From contig CAZUOM010000002.1 in assembly GCA_964621305.1 (NCBI GenBank), positions 73,733 to 137,732 of the forward strand: 64,000 nucleotides of DNA, read 5' to 3'. This stretch comes from an uncultured Gammaproteobacteria bacterium. GTDB taxonomy: Bacteria; Patescibacteriota; Microgenomatia; UBA10105; UBA927. The notes beneath the pieces were generated by a model. That model did no database searches. It was given only the letters and a program-made list of their open reading frames with translations, and was not told the DNA's origin. How positions within the stretch are numbered: the first letter of the stretch is position 1; each line of letters opens with the position of its first letter. A program made the position numbers and the translations under genes. Positions 1 through 60,733 of this stretch are shown in pieces.

Positions 1-997
1 CCTTCTGAATTTTTATGCCCGTATCCGGGAACAGAATAAGAGTTTTGAGACTTTTTCGTTTGGCAAGAAACCTTCCGAGACCGCTGTAGTCCAGCCTCCT
101 GTCAAATCCGCCGGCGATGAGCGTAGCGACGTCATCACCCAGCGCCTCAAGAGCATAGATGGTTGCCTCCGGGATAGTAGCAAGCGAGTCATTGTAAAAC
201 TTAATTCCCTTAAATTCTCCCACAAACTCCAGCCGGTGCGGGAGCGGTTTAAATTGTCCGATCGCCTGTTCTGTTAGTTTGCGACTCACTCCAAAAAATT
301 GGCCAACAGCAGTTGCGGCCGCAATGTTTTTATTGTCGCCATAAAATGCAACCTTGTTTCCCTTGCTGCTATTGGCAATTTTTGCTGACAGTTTGTTTGT
401 GCGGTCGTAAACAACAACGTCTTTTACCGTTTGGAATTTGACGATATTAGCTTTAGCAGCAACATACTGGTCAAAAGAAGAGTAATAATCCAGGTGTTCA
501 GGAAAAACATTGAGGACAACGGCAACATGGGGACTAAACTTAATATCGGCGAGTTGATGGCTAGATAGTTCTATGACGAATACCGTTTTTTGGGTCGCGG
601 CGCCTAGGTGGTCAAGCGCCGGGTTGCCGATGTTGCCGACGAGCCGCACATCGGCAAATTTCTGCTTGAGGATATCGGCAATAAGAGCTGATGTTGTACT
701 TTTTCCCTTGGTGCCAGTGACGCCGACGGTGACTCCCCGACACAGAGAAAAAAAGATGTTTACTGCTGTGGTGACAAATGGAGCGCGAACTTTTTCAGGT
801 GGAATTCCGGGGGTGCGCACGACGGTGTCATACAGCTGGAGATTATCTAAATAATTATCGCCGTCTTTTTTATCAGCGATACTTATAGACAGACTTGAAT
901 AGTTCTTGCGCAAAAACCGTTCCACGCTTTGGTTTTCTCGTCCGTAGCCAAGGAGAATTATTTTGTCCCCCCTAATTTCACTTGAGTAGTTTTTCAT
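1..997 (-). CDS. murD: UDP-N-acetylmuramoylalanine--D-glutamate ligase MurD (C-terminus runs off left window edge)
   Basis: Manual minus-strand translation from ATG (rc of cat 995-997): [25 protein letters not shown]...GVTGTKGKST (Mur-ligase P-loop)...PHRLEFV... Absent from the ORF track because the ORF runs past position 1. Start overlaps the stop of the upstream gene by about 20 nt. Confidence 0.8.
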   Translation of the reverse strand, partial: MKNYSSEIRGDKIILLGYGRENQSVERFLRKNYSSLSISIADKKDGDNYLDNLQLYDTVVRTPGIPPEKVRAPFVTTAVNIFFSLCRGVTVGVTGTKGKSTTSALIADILKQKFADVRLVGNIGNPALDHLGAATQKTVFVIELSSHQLADIKFSPHVAVVLNVFPEHLDYYSSFDQYVAAKANIVKFQTVKDVVVYDRTNKLSAKIANSSKGNKVAFYGDNKNIAAATAVGQFFGVSRKLTEQAIGQFKPLPHRLEFVGEFKGIKFYNDSLATIPEATIYALEALGDDVATLIAGGFDRRLDYSGLGRFLAKRKSLKTLILFPDTGIKIQK

Positions 998-2336
998 ATT
1001 CAGGCGGCAGAAAGTGATTTGTGTTCCAACCAGAAAGGGAATAATTTTCGCCGGCCAACATGGCGACTGCCGCTTGTGCCTCTTCCGGCGCCCCCACGCA
1101 TTCAAATGGCTTCTTGTCCCCTGCTCCGGCCAAATCTAAAAAATGTTGTTGTAGCTCTTTTTTTTCCAAAAAATTGCTGCCGAAAACCGATTTCATTTGA
1201 TAGTTCGAAAGAAATGGGGATAAAATGAGATACACAAAGGCGCACTTGGCGCAGGCTCCGCACCAGTCGCGGCCGCGGAGCTTGTTGCAACTTGCAAAAA
1301 CCGGGTGATATTTTGGCATTTTTGCAAAAATAGAGGCGACTTGGATCTCGGAAAGCGGACGAAGAAAACTGAAGTACTCGGGTTTTCTTAAGGTCTCCCC
1401 CTGCCATGCAGGGAGAGACCTTGTAAAATATTCCCTGAATTTTTTCTCAAACTCATAACTTTTGGAGTACTGGTGGTTGATGATTTTGCCCAGATATTCT
1501 ATGTTTCCCTCTGAAGCACTTGATTCATTTGAGGCAATGACATGTTGAAAACTGTGGAGCTTAGCAACCATTGAGCCGAGGAATGCAAGGTAGGCAGAAA
1601 ACGGCGTATGTCCGTTGAGATATCCTTGATGGTTAAGTTCAAGCAAAGCAGCATCAATTGTTCGCTTAACAATTATCGGATTTTCGTATCCTGCGACCTC
1701 GACAACCCTTATGGCAGCGGGAGTTGGGTTGAGAAGAAGAACGTTTTTTCGAGTCGGCATTTTTTTGAGAAGCTCAATGGTTACCACCGAGTCTTTGCCG
1801 CCACTGGCGAGGATGAGATCACCACGAGAAGCAGGGCTAGTAACACGAGCAGGGCTAGTAACACGAGAAACGCTGGAAATAGTAAGAAAGCCAGAACCGG
1901 TAAAGTCGATCGCGTTTTTGTAGAAAAATTCACCGAGGCCGTTTATGAATAAATCGTGCCACCAATCAATTTGTTCAGGGGTCAAACTCCCCGCTTTGAC
2001 AATCAACTCCGGCGGGCAGGCGGCTTTCCAGTAGCTGATTGCCTCTACCATGCCGAGGTTGAAAACCAACGGGTCGATAAGTGATCGATTGATTTCTCCC
2101 CTAACCGGAATTGTTATTTCCGGAGAAAATCGAATATCTGGTTCGAGAAGAAAATAGAATCGGACAACTAGTTTCTCGTTGGCTTCAGAAATCTCGTAGG
2201 ATTGGTAGACCAACCGAGGATGTTTAGCGCGCAATTTTTCGACATTCATCTTGCGTATTATACCATCGACCTCTATAATAGACGCATGCCGAAGCGAATA
2301 TATCAACCCAAAAAGAAAAAGCGAGCGCAAAAGCAC
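978..2336 (-). CDS. PP-loop (SGGKDS) ATP-pyrophosphatase family protein with C-terminal CxxC; candidate MurL-like UDP-MurNAc-L-Ala-L-Glu epimerase
   Basis: 452-aa [13 protein letters not shown]-loop motif and C-terminal CGACAKC. Lies immediately upstream of murD, is co-oriented with it and overlaps it. Contains an in-frame 18-bp tandem duplication ([13 protein letters not shown]) and a diverged palindromic insertion at 1389-1423. The functional assignment is inference. Confidence 0.55.
1389..1423. repeat. diverged copy of the in-frame palindromic element (AAGGTCTCCCCCTGC catg GCAGGGAGAGACCTT)
   Basis: 15-bp inverted repeat with 1 mismatch and a 4-nt loop, located inside the coding sequence. 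Encodes [11 protein letters not shown] on the minus strand, similar to the peptides encoded by the copies at 14415 and 60308. Confidence 0.6.
1831..1866. repeat. perfect 18-bp tandem duplication (GCAGGGCTAGTAACACGA x2) inside the PP-loop gene
   Basis: Read directly in the sequence. It is in frame and duplicates the hexapeptide (SRVTSP)ARVTSP just upstream of the SGGKDS motif. Confidence 0.9.
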
Positions 2337-2881: not shown

Positions 2882-3232
2882 ATGTTATCGCGGCCACATC
2901 GTCTTCCCGCTTCTGAGATAAAGAATATTCTTCGGAGTAAAGAAAGATTCTCCAGCAGAGAGTTCCATATTGTGTTTGCCAAAAACAATCTGACTGTTTC
3001 CCGTTTCGCCGTAGTTGTTTCAAACAAAATTGATAAGCGCGCAACCGTACGAAATCGCACCAAGCGCCTCATCCGTGAGTCGGCGCGGCATCTGCTTCCG
3101 CGTCTCGTAAGAGGCCGGGATGTCGTGATCATTGCAAAAAAAGCGCTTGGGGAGATTGGTCAGTCGCAGGCGCAAAAAATTGTCCAAGAAGCCTTTTCCC
3201 GTGGCAGTCTTTTCAACAATGCAACAATGTAA
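2882..3232 (+). CDS. rnpA: ribonuclease P protein component
   Basis: 116 aa, basic, RHRL...[25 protein letters not shown]. Sits in the conserved rpmH-rnpA-yidD-yidC-jag context. Confidence 0.85.
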
Positions 3233-6419: not shown

Positions 6420-7184
6420 ATGATGAGCATAAAGCAAACAGCTGGCCGGCTCGTGGAGTTTTTAAAAGTTTCGTTCCAAGACTCTGGATTTACTCGGGCG
6501 GTCATCGCCCTCTCCGGCGGGGTGGACTCAAGTACTAGCTGCGCGCTGACTGCCCAAACAATCGGAAAAGAAAACGTCTATCCCCTTCTTCTTCCCTACG
6601 GGAACCTCAATAAAAAGAGTATGACCGACGCGTGGTTAGTGACAAAAGTCGTCGGAATTCCGAAAAAAAATGTTACAGAAAAAAATATTGCCCCATTGGT
6701 TGACCCGGTTCTTGCAACAGATCCGACGATGGATAACGTTCGTCGCGGCAACATCATGGCCCGCGTGCGGATGATACTCCTTTATGACTGGGCCAAAAAA
6801 CACAATGCGCTCGTAGTTGGGACGGAAAACAAAACCGAGCATCTCTTGGGATACTTTACTCGCTTCGGTGATGAGGCAAGCGACATTGAGCCGCTGCGGA
6901 GCCTTTACAAAACAGAGGTTTATGAACTTGCAAAATTACTGAAACTGCCGAAAGCAATCTTAACCAAGGCGCCAACCGCTGGTTTATGGGAAGGCCAAAC
7001 AGATGAAGGAGAGTTTGGTTTTACTTACAAAGAAGCGGATGAGATTTTGACCCTGTTGGTTGATAAGGGCCTCGCCATTGCCGATGTCATTCTAAAAGGA
7101 TATGATCGAACCACCGTTGAGAAGGTGGCGACCCGCATGAAAGCTAACAACTTTAAGCACAATCTTCCCCTCGTTCCCCTATGA
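6420..7184 (+). CDS. nadE: NH3-dependent NAD+ synthetase
   Basis: ALSGGVDSS PP-loop motif, 254 aa, NadE-like throughout. Confidence 0.85.
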   Translation: MMSIKQTAGRLVEFLKVSFQDSGFTRAVIALSGGVDSSTSCALTAQTIGKENVYPLLLPYGNLNKKSMTDAWLVTKVVGIPKKNVTEKNIAPLVDPVLATDPTMDNVRRGNIMARVRMILLYDWAKKHNALVVGTENKTEHLLGYFTRFGDEASDIEPLRSLYKTEVYELAKLLKLPKAILTKAPTAGLWEGQTDEGEFGFTYKEADEILTLLVDKGLAIADVILKGYDRTTVEKVATRMKANNFKHNLPLVPL

Positions 7185-13918: not shown

Positions 13919-14650
13919 ATGAACAGGAAGAAAACGCAACAGGTTATTGAGCTTCTTAAGAAAGAATATCCCAACGCAAAGATAGTCCTCAAGTTTAGTA
14001 ACCCGTGGGAACTTTTGGTAGCGGTGGTTTTATCAGCCCAATGCACAGACGCGGTAGTCAATAGGGTGACAGAGAAGCTTTTTGCCAAATACAAAACCCT
14101 TGATGGCTATCTAAAGGCAGACATAAAAACCTTCGAACAGGAGATAAGATCCACAGGCTTTTACCACAACAAAGCGAAAAATATTTTGGCCGCGGCAAAA
14201 CTCGTCAAGGAAAAATTTGGTGGCGAGGTGCCAAGCACGATGAGCGAGCTTTTGACGCTTCCCGGTGTGGCGAGAAAAACAGCAAACATCATTTTGGGCA
14301 ACGCGTTTAACATTATAGAGGGCATCGCTGTCGATACCCACGTGTCGCGCCTGAGCCAGCGCTTGCGGCTGGTTAATGTAGACACAATCGGCGGGAAGAA
14401 AGTTATTTTTTTCAAAAGGGGTCCCCTTGCAGCTTTGCAAGGGGACCCCTTGAAGAGAGAGATCGTAGATTATAAAAAGGACGCCGACCCGGTCAAAATA
14501 GAACGCGAGCTGATGGCGGTCGTGCCCAAACCAGATTGGTTCAAGCTCACGTATTTGTTGATCGATCACGGCCGGGCAATCTGCAAAGCCCAAAATCCCA
14601 ACTGCAGCGCCTGTGTCCTTAATAAACTTTGTCCGGCGTCACGGCTTTAA
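13919..14650 (+). CDS. nth: endonuclease III (Nth) carrying an in-frame ~36-aa insertion encoded by a palindromic element
   Basis: Start chosen at MNRKK (13919). LSAQCTD, LPGVARKTANIIL, VDTHVSRLSQRL and a C-terminal CKAQNPNCSACVLNKLCP 4Fe-4S loop. The insertion lies between the HhH-GPD core and the FeS loop and contains a 16-bp perfect inverted repeat. Confidence 0.85.
   Translation: MNRKKTQQVIELLKKEYPNAKIVLKFSNPWELLVAVVLSAQCTDAVVNRVTEKLFAKYKTLDGYLKADIKTFEQEIRSTGFYHNKAKNILAAAKLVKEKFGGEVPSTMSELLTLPGVARKTANIILGNAFNIIEGIAVDTHVSRLSQRLRLVNVDTIGGKKVIFFKRGPLAALQGDPLKREIVDYKKDADPVKIERELMAVVPKPDWFKLTYLLIDHGRAICKAQNPNCSACVLNKLCPASRL
14415..14454. repeat. palindromic in-frame element AAGGGGTCCCCTTGCA-gctt-TGCAAGGGGACCCCTT
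   Basis: Perfect 16-bp inverted repeat with a 4-nt loop inside the nth coding sequence. A near-identical copy lies in trpS at 60308-60350. Confidence 0.9.
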
Positions 14651-36169: not shown

Positions 36170-36709
36170 ATGTCGATCTACACCCGTACCGGTGACGACG
36201 GAACGACCGCGCTTTTTGGCGGAAAGAGGGTCTTAAAATGCGAAGATCTCGTGGATGCCTATGGTTCTTTAGATGAGCTCAATTCGTGGGTTGGATTCAT
36301 CGCCTCGCAGAGTAAAGAACAGAGCGAGAAAAAATTTCTTCAAACAATACAATCAGACCTTTTTACCATTGGGAGTACGCTGGCCGGATGGAAGGGGGAT
36401 ATAACACAACTGGGCAAACGCGTTATAGAAATGGAACAATGGATCGACCGGATGGAAAAAGTCCTGCCAGAACTTACGAACTTTATTCTTCCCGGCGGGT
36501 CAACCAACGGAGCACGAGTTCATTTGGCGCGAAGCGTTTGCCGGCGGGTTGAACGAAAAATTGTTGCGTTGAAGAAAAAACAAGAGGTTGATCTATCTAT
36601 TATTGAATATCTTAACCGTTTTTCGGACTTGCTATTTACTCTGGCGCGAATTATAAATAAGGACGCAAACGTACCAGAAATAATTTGGAATAGTAGAAAA
36701 AAAGCTTGA
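36170..36709 (+). CDS. PduO-type ATP:cob(I)alamin adenosyltransferase
   Basis: MSIYTRTGDDGTTALFGGKRVLKCEDLVDAYGSLDELNSWVG is the PduO-family N-terminus. Confidence 0.85.
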   Translation: MSIYTRTGDDGTTALFGGKRVLKCEDLVDAYGSLDELNSWVGFIASQSKEQSEKKFLQTIQSDLFTIGSTLAGWKGDITQLGKRVIEMEQWIDRMEKVLPELTNFILPGGSTNGARVHLARSVCRRVERKIVALKKKQEVDLSIIEYLNRFSDLLFTLARIINKDANVPEIIWNSRKKA

Positions 36710-36877
36710 TTGGGGGAATCGTGGTGCAATCCCACGGCTGTGCCGCAACTGTATAGCCAGACTACCCAATCACGCGTCATCCCAGCATCACCAGAATGTG
36801 CTGGGTAAACCTTCGAGCAAAGGGCAGTTTTTATACGCGCCTTCTCGCTCGAGGAGGTTTTTTGATGGGAAATAGAT

Positions 36878-38728
36878 ATGGGTAAATTTAATAAGGAAGT
36901 TTTTAGGATATCCTACGAGGTTTTGAAAAAAAAAGTTGTTGCGGCAAACCCCGACTTTTCCGAGCACGACATTAACATCGAAACGGCTCAGCGGTTCCGC
37001 CCGCGGTTTTTCCTTGACATGGCAACTGTTCGCCACGAAGATCGGGGGACAAAAAAATACGCCGTTGGCGACATAGAGCTTTTATCTACCGGAGACATTT
37101 ACTATAGGCAATATGGCGTAACCTTAGAAGAACTTAATGAAAATACTCGATTATATAATCCAAACGCTTACTTAGTAACTGACCATCAAGCCTCACGGCT
37201 GGCGGCACAAAGGTTACACGCAGGAGCTTCAATCGTAGCTTTTGCTTCCGCTAGGAAAGGCAGCGATAACCGGGATATTCAGGTTCTCACAATTGATCCG
37301 GTAACAAAAAAAGGAATATCCATAACCATAAACGCCGCCTCAGACGGAGGGCTTCATACGTTTTCAGAAATGCAGAGAGTGATTCAAAACTTATTTCCAG
37401 AGCTCACTCAAGTTCAACCTCAAGAGAATGTAAGCATTTTTACTGATAGACCAACTTCTGTTGAAAGAGCTCGCCAGATTGTTTCAAGAGTCAATTTTAG
37501 CCAGCAGCTGCGGACAGGAAAAGTAGTTAGGGAAAACAATCATGATATGCAGAAAAGGACTAATGATTTTAGAGCGTTTAGGTCACAAGACGACAAAAAG
37601 TTAACAGTCGTGAAAACAGAGACAAAAATAGCAAATGACCGACGCCGAGCGATACGTGACATTTTTGTCTATCGTCAAAAAGGCTGGATAGAGTTACAAC
37701 CGAATCAATCGATAAACCGAGGTTATGAAAAAATAAAACATATTATTATTGATGCAAACCAAAGGCGTTACACCGACATGAAAAAAACGGCTCTTACGCT
37801 TTGGTTTGCAGGTAAAACTCAGGTTGCCATTGGTGCTGTTCCACTGTTGGTTGCCTCTTTGGCAAAAGAAATACCCCAGCCGCTGCGAGCGGTTGAAAAA
37901 AGCATTGCGCGGCATCAAAAGAAAGAGGCAAAAAGGCTCTATAAAGAAAAAAAGAAGATTAGGGAACGACAAAAAAGGCATGCTCAAGAGAGCATTGAGA
38001 GAGGTAGAAAGATGGATATTGAAGATAAACTGAGAAGGCGCGAACCGAAACAAAAAAGAAAAAAGTCACAAAAAGAACGCACCGTTTTTTCTAAAGAAAC
38101 GCAGCGAAAAAAGAAAAAAGATAAGCCATTTCAATTCAAGGAGCAACGGGAGAAGAAACAAACGAAATATGTAGAAAGGTCAAAGATGAAAAAGGGAAAA
38201 GAAAGGTTTGTTAAAAAAGAAAAAAGGCTTACCAAGAATACGGAAAAAATGAAGAGGGGCGTTGTTAAGATGTGCACAGAAAAGGCATTAATACGAGCCC
38301 TTACTTTATGGGCAAAAAAATTGAAACAGAAGCGAGAAGAAGGCGAGAGCAGGGCAATTAGAACGGTATCAAAAAAAATAGAGGAATTGTTACGGTCACC
38401 AACTCTTTCCAAAAAAGCTGGGAAAGAACAAATCCCCACTGTAGGTTTTTCTTTTGCCTGGATTTTATGGCTTTTATTTGAACCATCGAGAAGAAGGCGG
38501 CTACGCCCAAAAGTAGGTAGGGCTGACAACTTAGGAAAGACAGAAATTATTCCAGAGGGGATAATAACTCAAGAGCAGAGACAGTGGCTGCTTTTGTGTA
38601 TCATTTGGTATTTGACTATGATACAGGAGACGGGATTAGGAAACAAAAAAAATTACAAACATGCTGGACATCATTTGCCCAAGCCTTTTGCCCAAACAGG
38701 CGTAATTTTTGCGTATCAATCGTGGTAG
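36878..38728 (+). CDS. hypothetical 616-aa protein with ~350-aa N-terminal domain and a long K/R/E-rich low-complexity segment
   Basis: No recognised motif. First gene of a three-gene cluster ending in a VirD4/TraG-like ATPase. Confidence 0.6.
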   Translation: MGKFNKEVFRISYEVLKKKVVAANPDFSEHDINIETAQRFRPRFFLDMATVRHEDRGTKKYAVGDIELLSTGDIYYRQYGVTLEELNENTRLYNPNAYLVTDHQASRLAAQRLHAGASIVAFASARKGSDNRDIQVLTIDPVTKKGISITINAASDGGLHTFSEMQRVIQNLFPELTQVQPQENVSIFTDRPTSVERARQIVSRVNFSQQLRTGKVVRENNHDMQKRTNDFRAFRSQDDKKLTVVKTETKIANDRRRAIRDIFVYRQKGWIELQPNQSINRGYEKIKHIIIDANQRRYTDMKKTALTLWFAGKTQVAIGAVPLLVASLAKEIPQPLRAVEKSIARHQKKEAKRLYKEKKKIRERQKRHAQESIERGRKMDIEDKLRRREPKQKRKKSQKERTVFSKETQRKKKKDKPFQFKEQREKKQTKYVERSKMKKGKERFVKKEKRLTKNTEKMKRGVVKMCTEKALIRALTLWAKKLKQKREEGESRAIRTVSKKIEELLRSPTLSKKAGKEQIPTVGFSFAWILWLLFEPSRRRRLRPKVGRADNLGKTEIIPEGIITQEQRQWLLLCIIWYLTMIQETGLGNKKNYKHAGHHLPKPFAQTGVIFAYQSW

Positions 38729-51418: not shown

Positions 51419-51811
51419 GGGGATGAGTGATTCGACGGGGAGAGCACGTTAAAAACTGCAAGCCGGCGATGACAAAAGAGCCGTAAAAATTTGTCAAATC
51501 TAACTGCTAATATTATTAGCGAGGAAGACGAGCAAGCGCTTCTTGCGTTAGCTCTCTCCCGACGTCAAGCACGATTGGCTTTTGCCTATCAAGCGTAAAC
51601 GTCCATCTCTAAAGTTGTTTTCTCGGTGACTCTCTTGAGGTGTAAAAACAGCCGAGGCGTCAGGAGTCAATTGACCGATTGATTCCGGAGTAAAAGGTCA
51701 AACCATTGTACGGTTTTTGTCCGTTTTTATCGTATAATGTATCAAACGGACTACGCTTGTAGATGTTTAGATGTGCTCCTTCGGACCCGGGTTCATTACC
51801 CGGCATCTCCA
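51419..51811 (+). ncRNA. ssrA: tmRNA (ssrA)
   Basis: 5' GGGGATGAGTGATTCGACGGGG (canonical GGGG.UG...GAUUCGACGGGG). 3' tRNA-like end GGACCCGGGTTCATTACCCGGCATCTCC-A with acceptor pairing GGGGATG/CATCTCC including the G3-U70 Ala identity pair. About 393 nt, immediately downstream of smpB. GCT resume codon at nt 88. Confidence 0.85.
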
Positions 51812-51813
51812 CA

Positions 51814-52437
51814 GTGGGAATTTTAGATTTTATTTTTCCGAAGCGCTGCCTGGGGTGCGGGAGGACCGGAAAATATTTTTGTGACAGGTGCAGAAGAGAG
51901 ATCAGAACAATTGAAACGCGCGAGAGGGCAACAGGCAGCCTCGACGGCTTGACAAGCTTTTTTCGTTACGACAGTCTTGTCAGACAAGCAATAAAAGCGC
52001 TCAAATATAGCTTCGTCTCCGACCTTGCTCACGAATTTATTTCTCTTATCCCACAATCATCGTTTTTTCGTCTCCCTAAGTACTCTGTTCTCGTGCCGAT
52101 TCCATTGCATTCGGCACGGTTGCGGCATCGCGGTTTTAACCAAGCAGAACTTTTAGGAAATTTGATTGCACAAAAGCTATCTATTCCGATGCGAACTGAC
52201 ATATTGGTCCGTACGCAAAAAACCACTCCCCAAGTAGAAATGAAGGATAGAGAAAAAAGGCTAAAAAATATGCATAATGTTTTTTCGGTTAGCTCTTCAA
52301 CAATTCAACAATTTAACAATGCAACAATTTTTCTTTTCGACGATGTCTTCACCACCGGTGCCACCATGCGCTCAGCAGCAACCGCGCTTAAGCGGAACGG
52401 GGTAGGATTTGTTTTGGGTATCACGATGGCACGGTGA
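51814..52437 (+). CDS. comF: ComF-family phosphoribosyltransferase (competence protein ComFC)
   Basis: GTG start taken so the gene does not overlap tmRNA. ...ILDFIFPKRCLGCG...CDRC is the Zn-finger N-terminus. PRT motif IFLFDDVFTTGATM. Confidence 0.7.
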   Translation: MGILDFIFPKRCLGCGRTGKYFCDRCRREIRTIETRERATGSLDGLTSFFRYDSLVRQAIKALKYSFVSDLAHEFISLIPQSSFFRLPKYSVLVPIPLHSARLRHRGFNQAELLGNLIAQKLSIPMRTDILVRTQKTTPQVEMKDREKRLKNMHNVFSVSSSTIQQFNNATIFLFDDVFTTGATMRSAATALKRNGVGFVLGITMAR

Positions 52438-52452
52438 TATAATAGAGGGAAA

Positions 52453-52539
52453 GGAGGGTTGGCTGAGCGGTCCAAAGCGAAAGGTTGCTAACCTTTTGAG
52501 CCGAATAAGCTCGCACAGGTTCAAATCCTGTACCCTCCG
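52453..52539 (+). tRNA. tRNA-Ser (anticodon GCU)
   Basis: Type II cloverleaf: acceptor GGAGGGT/ACCCTCC, anticodon stem AAAGG/CCTTT, loop ttGCTaa, long variable arm, T-arm ACAGG-TTCAAAT-CCTGT. No CCA is encoded. Confidence 0.8.
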
Positions 52540-52617: not shown

Positions 52618-52704
52618 GGGAGAGTTGGCCGAGCGGTTCATGGCGCTGGTCTTGAAAACCAGTGAGCGAAAGCTTTCGCAGGTTCGAATCCTGCACTCTC
52701 CGCC
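52618..52704 (+). tRNA. tRNA-Ser (anticodon UGA), CCA encoded
   Basis: Acceptor GGAGAGT/ACTCTCC, anticodon stem CTGGT/ACCAG, loop ctTGAaa, long variable arm, T-arm GCAGG-TTCGAAT-CCTGC, discriminator G plus CCA. Confidence 0.8.
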
Positions 52705-55423: not shown

Positions 55424-55495
55424 TGCCAGCGGCAGGGATTGAACCTGCTACCCTCGCCTTATGAAGACGGTGCTCTACCAATGAGCTACGCTGGC
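55424..55495 (-). tRNA. tRNA with CAU anticodon (Met or Ile2-lysidine type)
   Basis: Reverse complement GCCAGCG-TA-GCTC-ATTGGTA-GAGC...ttCATaa...GCAGG-TTCAATC-CCTGC-CGCTGGC-A. The anticodon stem is only 4 bp with a U-G pair. Confidence 0.65.
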
Positions 55496-55923
55496 TCAGC
55501 CTCATTGTATGAAACTTGAGCTAGAAAGGCAATTCTGGTATAGTAGTGATGTTCATTTACCGCGGGGTAGTGTACAGTTGCACAGAAGGCTTAAGTATGG
55601 GCTCATCGGTAAGAAATTACTGTATGATAATTCGGCTATATCGGTGAAACCCGGATATTATGACTTTGTCACCGTCCGGGCAATACCGAGGAAAGATCCC
55701 GAGTAGAATCGAGGGAAATCCGTAGAGACTATACGCCGAACCCTTCGTCGCTTCGCTCCTCAGGGCAAGTCCTGTCGAGCGAAATTGACAAGGTGATGAT
55801 ATAGTCCGACACTCTCAGTAATGGGAGCCCGTGAAGCAGAACAAGTACGCTTCAGGGTAAAAAACACGTGCATAATCTTCTAGGCTGGGTGCGACTCCCA
55901 GCCCCGCAACCCAGGCTATTAAA

Positions 55924-59284: not shown

Positions 59285-60733
59285 ATGAAACGATTTATTT
59301 CTGGTATTACGCCGAGCGGGGATGGGAGTTTACATATTGGCAATTATTTGGGTGCCGTGCGGCAGTTTATTGATCTTGCTCGATCAAATGAGACGTATCT
59401 CATGGTTGCAGACCTTCACGGCTTGACGACGATCCAGGATAAACAGCAGTTGATTCATAACATCGAAACATTGGTCCTCAATGAATTGGCACTCCTGCGC
59501 GGGTTTATGACAGCGAAAGAATTTAGCAAAATTGTCTTTTTTCGCCAATCTGATGTACTCATGCACGCCGAGTGCCAGTCGATTCTCAACAACGTCACCC
59601 CTCTGGGGTTACTTAAGCGCGCGCACGCGTACAAAGATAAGCTTGGTAAGGATACAGTGAAGGACGACATCAACGTTGGCCTCTTTTCCTATCCGATGCT
59701 CATGGCTGCAGACATACTCCTCTACCAGCCGGATCTAGTGCCGGTTGGTAAAGATCAAAAGCAACACATAGAAATAACGCGTGATATCGCCGATCGGTTC
59801 AACAAAATTTTTCGAGCAAAAGTCTTTAAACTTCCTGAGCCGTATATTCCAGAGGAAGTTGCTGTGGTATTGGGGACAGACGGGAAGCGCAAGATGAGTA
59901 AATCCCTCGGAAACATTATTGCTATGTTTGAGCCGGAAGAGGTCATCAAAAAACAGGTGATGGAAACCTACACGGATCCGGCCCGAGCTCACGCCACCGA
60001 TCCAGGGCACGTAGAAGGGAATATGGTGTTTGCATATCTGGATTTTTTCGGAGAACCGCGTAGCGTTGCGAAACTAAAAGAAAAATACCGTCGCGGAACC
60101 GTCGCGGACGTAGAGGTGAAAGAGTATTTGTTTAAAACTTTAATTGAGTATTTTGCTCCAGCCCGCAAAGCATATGAGCAGTTAAAGGCTAATCCAGTAA
60201 TGGTCAAAAAAATTCTTGCCGACGGAGCCCAAAAGGCCAGTGCGGTTGCCAGTCAAACCATGATGGCGGTGCGAGAGGCGATAGGGTTGACGAACAAGTA
60301 CTCAATAAGGGGTCCCCTTGCGGGGCCATCTTTGCAAGGGGACCCCTTGCAAAAAACGATTAGTATCGATGAATTTGCGCGGGTGGAGGAACGGGTGGGG
60401 AAGGTAATCGAGGCGACGAATGTCGAAGGGAGCGAGAAGCTCATTCGATTGGTGGTTGATTTTGGCCCCGCCTTCGCTGAAGCTACGGCGGGCGAGGGAA
60501 AGCGGATTATTTTCACCGGCGTGCGGGGATTTGGTTATACGCCGGAAGATTTTCTCAACAAACAATTTTTGTTTGTCACCAATCTTGCGCCGAGAAAGAT
60601 GCCCTCCTACGTTGAAACTCCGGCGGGTAAAATGGGGGAAGAATCACAAGGCATGATTTTAGCCGTAGACGGACCTGGTAAACCAATCTTTGTTTCCGCC
60701 GAAGAAATGCCATTGGGAGCAAAAGTCAGATAA
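59285..60733 (+). CDS. trpS: tryptophan--tRNA ligase fused to a C-terminal EMAP/Trbp111-like tRNA-binding domain, with in-frame palindromic insertion in the linker
   Basis: Start MKRFISGITPSG..HIGNYLGAV (HIGH-type) and KMSKS. C-terminal ~110 aa VGKVIEATNVEGSEKLIRLVVDFG... is the OB tRNA-binding domain. Confidence 0.85.
   Translation: MKRFISGITPSGDGSLHIGNYLGAVRQFIDLARSNETYLMVADLHGLTTIQDKQQLIHNIETLVLNELALLRGFMTAKEFSKIVFFRQSDVLMHAECQSILNNVTPLGLLKRAHAYKDKLGKDTVKDDINVGLFSYPMLMAADILLYQPDLVPVGKDQKQHIEITRDIADRFNKIFRAKVFKLPEPYIPEEVAVVLGTDGKRKMSKSLGNIIAMFEPEEVIKKQVMETYTDPARAHATDPGHVEGNMVFAYLDFFGEPRSVAKLKEKYRRGTVADVEVKEYLFKTLIEYFAPARKAYEQLKANPVMVKKILADGAQKASAVASQTMMAVREAIGLTNKYSIRGPLAGPSLQGDPLQKTISIDEFARVEERVGKVIEATNVEGSEKLIRLVVDFGPAFAEATAGEGKRIIFTGVRGFGYTPEDFLNKQFLFVTNLAPRKMPSYVETPAGKMGEESQGMILAVDGPGKPIFVSAEEMPLGAKVR
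60308..60350. repeat. palindromic in-frame element AAGGGGTCCCCTTGC-ggggccatcttt-GCAAGGGGACCCCTT inside trpS
   Basis: Arms identical to the nth copy. Encodes IRGPLAGPSLQGDPLQ. Confidence 0.9.

Follow-up and report, generated by a model that had tools for sequence, protein, structure and literature searches.

An overlapping murL–murD2 gene pair predicted to make peptidoglycan D-glutamate in a Patescibacteria-type bacterium

The MurD2/MurL pathway to peptidoglycan D-glutamate, published in 2017 (reviewed in PMC8788868 and PMC5808125), pairs a MurD-type ligase with MurL, an epimerase that needs ATP and Mg2+, forms AMP, is unidirectional and, according to its discoverers, "lacks known conserved domains" (PMC8788868, PMC5808125). 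The published distribution of MurL comprises some Gamma- and Alphaproteobacteria and the Micromonosporaceae, with low-similarity matches reported in cyanobacteria, a fungus, and an amoeba (PMC8788868, PMC5808125). On the ligase side, Xanthomonas oryzae MurD2 differs from Escherichia coli MurD at four residues near the glutamate site. Chirality is set by MurD2 E197 and R358, equivalent to E. coli D182 and K348, such that the E197D/R358K double mutant becomes a D-glutamate ligase, while a K319T exchange lets E. coli MurD accept L-glutamate (PMC8788868). Here, we analyzed a stretch of 64,000 nucleotides (the window; positions 73,733 to 137,732 of contig CAZUOM010000002.1, assembly GCA_964621305.1) in which two overlapping minus-strand genes, murL and murD2, probably form an operon making peptidoglycan D-glutamate without free D-glutamate, a reading to which we assign a probability of roughly 85%. 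The MurD2-type ligase would attach L-glutamate to the cell-wall precursor and MurL would then convert the precursor-bound L-glutamate to D-glutamate, consuming ATP.

A scan of the murL product against NCBIfam returned a single match at E ≤ 1, to NF041275 (MurL_Xanthmoales; E = 4.1e-73, 246.4 bits), the Xanthomonadales model for UDP-N-acetyl-alpha-D-muramoyl-L-alanyl-L-glutamate epimerase, in an alignment that runs from residue 62 to 400 of the protein and from position 61 to 395 of the 447-position model. This supports the MurL-type assignment ventured in a preliminary description of the locus, which proposed such a model comparison and took XOO_1320 for the Xanthomonas enzyme; the locus tags are in fact XOO_1319 for MurL and XOO_1320 for MurD2 (PMC8788868). 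Homologs 68-75% identical to the window protein, from Candidatus Gottesmanbacteria and other Patescibacteria, align end to end and carry both MurL Pfam domains, and MurL_N (PF26299) and MurL_epimerase_C (PF26298) are precomputed on all 120 nearest homologs listed. Homologs at ~50% identity belong to Oscillatoria-type cyanobacteria. Our Pfam scan of the window protein gave two sub-threshold matches only, DUF6395 and Ribonuclease-III-like, and returned neither PF26299 nor PF26298, two models that the scanned set may lack. Exact-sequence look-ups with the 423- and the 452-amino acid forms of the product matched no record. Judged from its sequence, the window gene is an ordinary, intact member of the known MurL family.

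With its SGGKDS motif, PP-loop fold, and Cys cluster, the window protein could also be read as an ordinary PP-loop enzyme (QueC, TilS, tRNA thiolase, or NAD synthetase) lying beside murD by chance. This explanation is effectively refuted. None of these families was matched in Pfam or NCBIfam at E ≤ 1, compared with 4e-73 for MurL, and the clear match to another PP-loop family that the preliminary description had named as a refuting outcome did not appear. Furthermore, the window holds a separate NAD synthase at 6420-7184, assigned by synteny with the NAD_synthase gene of two Gottesmanbacteria contigs (L001 and L002), and adjacency to murD recurs in ~75 of 80 species and extends to gene fusions, as detailed below.

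The AlphaFold model of MurL (predicted local distance difference test score, pLDDT, 93; predicted template modeling score, pTM, 0.92) was structurally closest to QueC and QueC-like PP-loop adenylating enzymes, and the protein has the SGGxDS motif in a Rossmann-like alpha/beta fold that characterizes the PP-loop ATP pyrophosphatase superfamily. Residues are numbered throughout on the 423-amino acid product, and all features named here lie on the minus strand. The N-terminal domain (approximately residues 1-125, 1875..2249; boundary estimated from the secondary structure of the model) corresponds to MurL_N in homologs and was modeled at pLDDT >90; it includes Cys78 (2016-2018), which is nearly invariant, and a conserved stretch, SYWKAAC. 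The N-terminal domain is followed by the QueC-like PP-loop ATP-pyrophosphatase domain (approximately residues 143-345, 1215..1823), the proposed adenylation site. The SGGKDS motif, read directly from the sequence, occupies residues 149-154 (1788..1805); across the family (83 members) it reads [G/S/A]-G-G-K-D-S, and G150, G151, and D153 never vary. A Cys4 motif, C321-x8-C330-x2-C333-x2-C336 (1242..1289), is invariant in 83/83 sequences, shares its spacing with E. coli QueC (TCYNGFKGDGCGHCAAC), and is a probable QueC-type zinc site; both the PP-loop motif and the C-terminal Cys cluster had been recognized in the preliminary description. Two further cysteines stand out, Cys384 in KPFECVG (codon 1098..1100), again invariant in 83/83 sequences, and Cys78, kept in 82. 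Among the positions conserved in at least 95% of the 82 other sequences, the window protein retains 65 of 66, the sole change being I to V.

Aligned by hhalign with E. coli QueC, the MurL family matched in the Cys-motif segment only (probability 6.8%, not significant overall). A search of the PDB with the single MurL protein gave no match and no solved MurL was found, and the family profile recovered TtuA alone, as a weak match in the PP-loop. At the C terminus, around residues 395-408 (nucleotides ~1026-1067), the window protein is missing a helical segment of ~30 amino acids found in most homologs, having 13 amino acids there against a median of 40; the segment is also absent from a few close relatives (P0001, P0002, P0016, P0087, and P0100).

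The murL coding sequence probably spans 978..2249 on the minus strand, encoding 423 amino acids from an ATG at 2249, based on the open reading frame (ORF) list, the homolog alignment, and NF041275. The frame stays open to a GTG at 2336 (978..2336, 452 amino acids), which is the product length first proposed; that frame stands, and the ATG is the likelier start because 37 homologs align from that position. The nearest homolog (P0001) is annotated with a similar N-terminal extension, which leaves the GTG start some probability. Downstream, murL overlaps murD by 20 nt (978..997, minus strand), as originally noted, with the murL stop codon at 978-980 and the murD ATG at 995-997, a start that agrees with homologs. 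An overlap of this kind is consistent with translational coupling. In relatives the overlap is 26 nt (L089, the nearest relative) or 4 nt (L002), and in L003 the genes are directly adjacent. Upstream, an extended -10-like sequence, TGGTATAAT (2257..2265, minus strand; read by eye), may be a promoter for murL-murD. It ends 7 nt before the ATG and no Shine-Dalgarno sequence is visible there, which together suggest a leaderless or near-leaderless mRNA. The promoter scan, built on a consensus with an obligatory -35 hexamer, did not call TGGTATAAT, and neither it nor the terminator scan found anything above background near murL.

The partner ligase gene (1..997, minus strand) runs off the window start, leaving the N-terminal 332 amino acids. 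This fragment contains Mur_ligase_M and Mur_ligase_C and passes the MurD model TIGR01087 (222.9 bits vs. a cutoff of 211.95). At the substrate-specificity residues, which the preliminary description had flagged as informative, it is E/L/R and hence MurD2-like: Glu167 (NVFPEH; 497-499) aligns with E. coli MurD D182, Leu272 (NDSLAT; 182-184) with K319, and Arg300 (GGFDR; 98-100) with K348, all codons being on the minus strand. The same holds for most of the 79 MurL-linked ligases compared, where Glu occupies the D182 position in 76, Arg the K348 position in all 79, and Ile or Leu the K319 position in 78, with the E/R pair present in 76/79. Ligases fused to MurL had E/[LI]/R in 23 of 26 cases. 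In the five solved D-glutamate MurD ligases (PDB) the three residues are D/K/K, except for T/R/K in 3lk7. By these residues, the window ligase is of the MurD2 type and predicted to add L-glutamate.

Relative to L002 and E. coli MurD, the window ligase and that of L089 (L089:3851-5083) share a central-domain deletion of ~37 amino acids, and their N-terminal domains are shorter; the full-length enzyme of L089 has 410 amino acids against 452 in L002. The deletion is a lineage trait and does not indicate decay. Full-length relatives of the ligase also pass TIGR01087, a D-glutamate model, and NCBIfam returned no MurD2-specific model for the MurL-linked ligases; annotation pipelines will therefore mislabel them.

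The distribution of murL was determined by a GTDB scan with the family alignment as query and one genome per species, in which at least 600 stretches matched and at least 584 were confirmed as relatives; linkage was counted in the best 80 of these. Many Patescibacteria lineages contribute to these 80 loci, one of them represented by the isolate Minisyncoccus archaeiphilus, as do Bacteroidales, Lachnospiraceae, Oscillospiraceae, Acidobacteria, Rokubacteria, and other groups. Complete Patescibacteria genomes with a MurL include CP011210.1, CP179889.1, and NZ_AP038758.1 (M. archaeiphilus). A murD homolog follows murL on the same strand in ~75 of the 80 species loci, mostly as its immediate neighbor, and most exceptions are short or truncated contigs. 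An exhaustive profile search of 1.84 billion cluster representatives gave 1,591 MurL clusters at 50% identity (E ≤ 1e-30). Among the 150 top-scoring representatives, 27 are 740-1,060 amino acids long, 26 of which match a MurD-type ligase by BLAST, and all ten fusions scanned against Pfam contained Mur-ligase domains. The MurL part comes first in most fusions and last in at least three; P0126, P0150, P0137, P0180, and P0260 are examples from within P0123-P0266, and in P0180 the ligase part has a further match, to PF01225, the N-terminal domain of the MurC/E/F type. Gene-calling read-through may account for some of the long proteins. Conserved adjacency and repeated fusion indicate that MurL and the ligase work together.

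Several points limit the case for an epimerase operon. The MurL score is far under the 700-bit equivalog cutoff of NF041275, and we therefore infer orthology to the Xanthomonas enzyme rather than regard it as certified; since the model is restricted to Xanthomonadales, the shortfall reflects divergence and is not evidence of a different function. Arg at the K348 position is also found in the D-glutamate ligase 3lk7, and in the MurD of S. mutans, another D-glutamate ligase (PMC8788868), so only the Glu and the replacement of K319 discriminate. The last ~80-120 residues of the ligase, including the P433 and F435 positions, are beyond the window (relatives have 410-452 amino acids). Finally, the absence of murI and of a D-amino-acid aminotransferase gene (dat) applies to the 64-kb window alone, where a tblastn search using E. 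coli MurI and a Pfam scan of ten mid-size ORFs (237-488 amino acids) found neither.

The sub-cutoff score, together with a fold closest to enzymes of the QueC and QueC-like kind, which convert adenylated carboxylates to amides, would also suit a MurL-family paralog that adenylates the same glutamate carboxylate for other chemistry, e.g., amidation to isoglutamine, with D-glutamate supplied by a murI elsewhere in the genome. Such an amidation would resemble what QueC does in its first half-reaction and what MurT/GatD does. We consider this improbable. The partner ligase has the L-glutamate-type E/R signature and the K319 replacement, and an epimerase must therefore follow for the ligase to make sense. 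In addition, the family-wide invariant residues are all kept, linkage to and fusion with this type of ligase hold across phyla, and no gene for a glutaminase or an ammonia-delivering partner lies between or beside the pair.

If MurL is the epimerase, its QueC-like domain would adenylate the alpha-carboxylate of the terminal L-glutamate, which would acidify the alpha-proton and allow inversion at the alpha-carbon, either by acid/base residues (candidates Cys78 and Cys384) or via an oxazolone. Release of the D-product and AMP would follow when the adenylate is hydrolyzed, a step that would make the epimerization unidirectional. As modeled, the PP-loop adenylating fold and the Cys4 motif fit the published AMP-forming chemistry. 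The proposal that Cys78 and Cys384, which are invariant or nearly so and lie outside the probable zinc motif, act as an acid/base pair is speculation by analogy with two-thiol racemases. We hold more tentatively still, and would sooner doubt than assert, the combined proposition that MurL is a QueC-derived PP-loop/zinc enzyme inverting its substrate through Cys78 and Cys384 and that MurD2/MurL, not MurI, is the usual source of D-glutamate across much of the Patescibacteria and in many Clostridia and Bacteroidales. If true, adenylation chemistry has been hybridized with that of two-thiol racemases, and the broad use of MurD2/MurL contrasts with the reviewed view of a pathway found in few genera and offering a narrow-spectrum drug target.

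Two insertions distinguish the window murL. The first is the in-frame 18-bp tandem duplication already noted in the preliminary description, which is perfect, lies at 1830..1865, and encodes RVTSPA twice (Tandem Repeats Finder [TRF] and repeat finder; TRF reported 1830-1867, 2.1 copies, 100% match). It sits in a hypervariable inter-domain linker (pLDDT 60 for residues 131-140) whose length ranges from 19 to 39 amino acids among homologs. The relative L089 has its own repeat at the same linker site, (TCCCGTACT)x3, 9 nt x3 at ~3010-3040, encoding SRT three times. Because the two sequences each carry a separate repeat at the same place, the MurL linker appears to be a repeat-prone hotspot. The second is a 39-nt in-frame insertion (1389..1427), encoding ~11 amino acids in a surface loop and missing from L089 and L002 in the DNA alignment. 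Within it we located the palindromic element mentioned earlier for this gene, a 33-nt inverted repeat at 1390-1422, AAGGTCTCCCCCTGC-CAT-GCAGGGAGAGACCTT, with 15-nt arms that are 93% complementary. At 18 amino acids, this loop exceeds that of every other sequence among the 83 compared (median 11; pLDDT 61 for residues 281-290).

Being lineage-specific and missing from the closest homologs, the two insertions could signal a murL that is decaying or nonfunctional. This is very unlikely. Both are in frame and in length-variable, low-confidence loops, the ORF is intact, the conserved positions are kept as described above, with a single I to V change, and the same palindromic element occurs in frame in two housekeeping genes, those for endonuclease III and a Tyr/Trp-tRNA synthetase. 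Neither the duplication nor the palindromic insertion is a functional part of MurL; both are in-frame indels that surface loops tolerate. Given insertions that are in frame in variable loops and 65/66 conserved residues kept, murL looks functional.

The palindrome belongs to a family with arms AAGGGGTCCCCTTGC / GCAAGGGGACCCCTT and a 3-12-nt loop, located within protein-coding genes. Related copies occur in the window at 14416-14451 and 60307-60348, and arm matches in the window numbered 11 against 4.8 expected, a count that no shuffle reached. Besides murL, the hosts are nth (endonuclease III), in which the copy separates the HhH-GPD domain from the Fe-S motif, and the Tyr/Trp-tRNA synthetase gene, in the linker before tRNA_bind. 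All three window copies begin at codon position 3, and the peptides they encode are alike, of the form xRGPLA...QGDPL. Exact copies were found in four metagenome contigs (L090:6059-6092, L091:2397-2429, L092:1320-1355, and L093:3262-3295), three of them inside long open frames and in the same phase as the window copies. The exact arm was absent from 89 loci examined, 86 of them from relatives. A 10-nt palindrome at 1268-1277, CGCGGCCGCG, occurs at chance frequency and was dropped. Rickettsia palindromic elements are short palindromic repeats that lie in frame within protein-coding genes at tolerated sites. The window element, in frame in murL, nth, and a tRNA synthetase gene, resembles them by analogy only; it is much shorter (33-42 nt), unrelated in sequence, and has no known mechanism of mobility.

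The neighborhood of the pair is shared with L001, L002, and L089, where rnpA-yidD-yidC-jag likewise lie on the other strand, divergent from murL-murD; in the window, L001, and L002, nadD and nadE lie beyond jag. Together with the best matches, the shared gene order makes a Microgenomates/Gottesmanbacteria-type member of the Patescibacteria the most likely source. Between murL and rnpA, the window has two ORFs assigned by eye, one resembling a HicB antitoxin (2420-2662) and the other a HicA toxin (end 2879). HicA/HicB-like genes are found in the same neighborhood of L089 and not in L001 or L002. Farther along the window, an AdoCbl-II (cobalamin) riboswitch aptamer match (36704-36775, plus strand; 40.4 bits vs. 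a gathering score of 36.5) overlaps the end of an ORF at 36170-36709 and lies upstream of another at 36878-38728. A transfer-messenger RNA gene (51419-51814, plus strand; 108.6 bits) has tRNA genes beyond it (52453-52539 and 52619-52702), and a group I catalytic intron match (Rfam; 55582-55828, plus strand; 62 bits, E = 2e-13) lies ~90 nt from a tRNA on the opposite strand (55424-55495, minus strand).

Automatic annotation would render this locus as a "hypothetical protein" beside a "D-glutamate ligase," where an L-glutamate ligase and an epimerase are likely the truth. If so, D-glutamate is made on the nucleotide precursor and a glutamate racemase need not be expected. The size of the MurL family, with 1,591 clusters and at least 584 GTDB relatives that include metagenome-assembled genomes of gut Clostridia and Bacteroidales, compares with the few genera given in reviews and bears on the proposal of the pathway as a narrow-spectrum antibiotic target (PMC8788868, PMC5808125). 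For an enzyme described as having no known domains, hypotheses that can be addressed by mutation now come from its QueC-like fold, from the Cys4 motif, and from two extra invariant cysteines. Literature searches on murI or glutamate racemase in Patescibacteria/CPR (the candidate phyla radiation), and on MurL together with QueC or under the systematic name of the enzyme, found nothing relevant beyond the Dairi-group reviews. The breadth, the fusions, and the QueC-like fold are extensions at the database level, and curators may already know of them.

Compared with Xanthomonas MurL, the window protein is homologous over nearly its full length (E = 4e-73), its gene is likewise directly upstream of and coupled to one for a MurD-type ligase, and its PP-loop is consistent with the ATP-to-AMP chemistry of the family; its source, in contrast, is Patescibacteria-type, a group outside the published distribution. 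Unlike most MurL homologs, the window protein and its nearest relatives are without the C-terminal insert of ~30 amino acids, and the two in-frame insertions are private to the window. The ligase, known from 332 amino acids, is like MurD2 a MurD homolog with Glu and Arg at the E197 and R358 positions and paired with MurL, whereas its close relatives have Ala and not Pro at the P433 position, a residue that is not decisive in MurD2 (PMC8788868). Relative to QueC (7-cyano-7-deazaguanine synthase) and to Cap9 and QatC, defense proteins of QueC-like type, the window MurL is QueC-like in fold and motif and is not a QueC: it matches no QueC family in Pfam or NCBIfam, has an extra N-terminal domain of ~125 amino acids and a C-terminal extension, and the outcome of MurL catalysis is epimerization and hydrolysis rather than amide or nitrile formation. 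With glutamate racemase, MurI, it shares the role of supplying D-glutamate for the peptidoglycan stem peptide. The two are nonetheless unrelated in fold and chemistry, MurI being cofactor-independent, reversible, and active on the free amino acid, whereas MurL acts on a nucleotide-linked dipeptide, consumes ATP, and is unidirectional.

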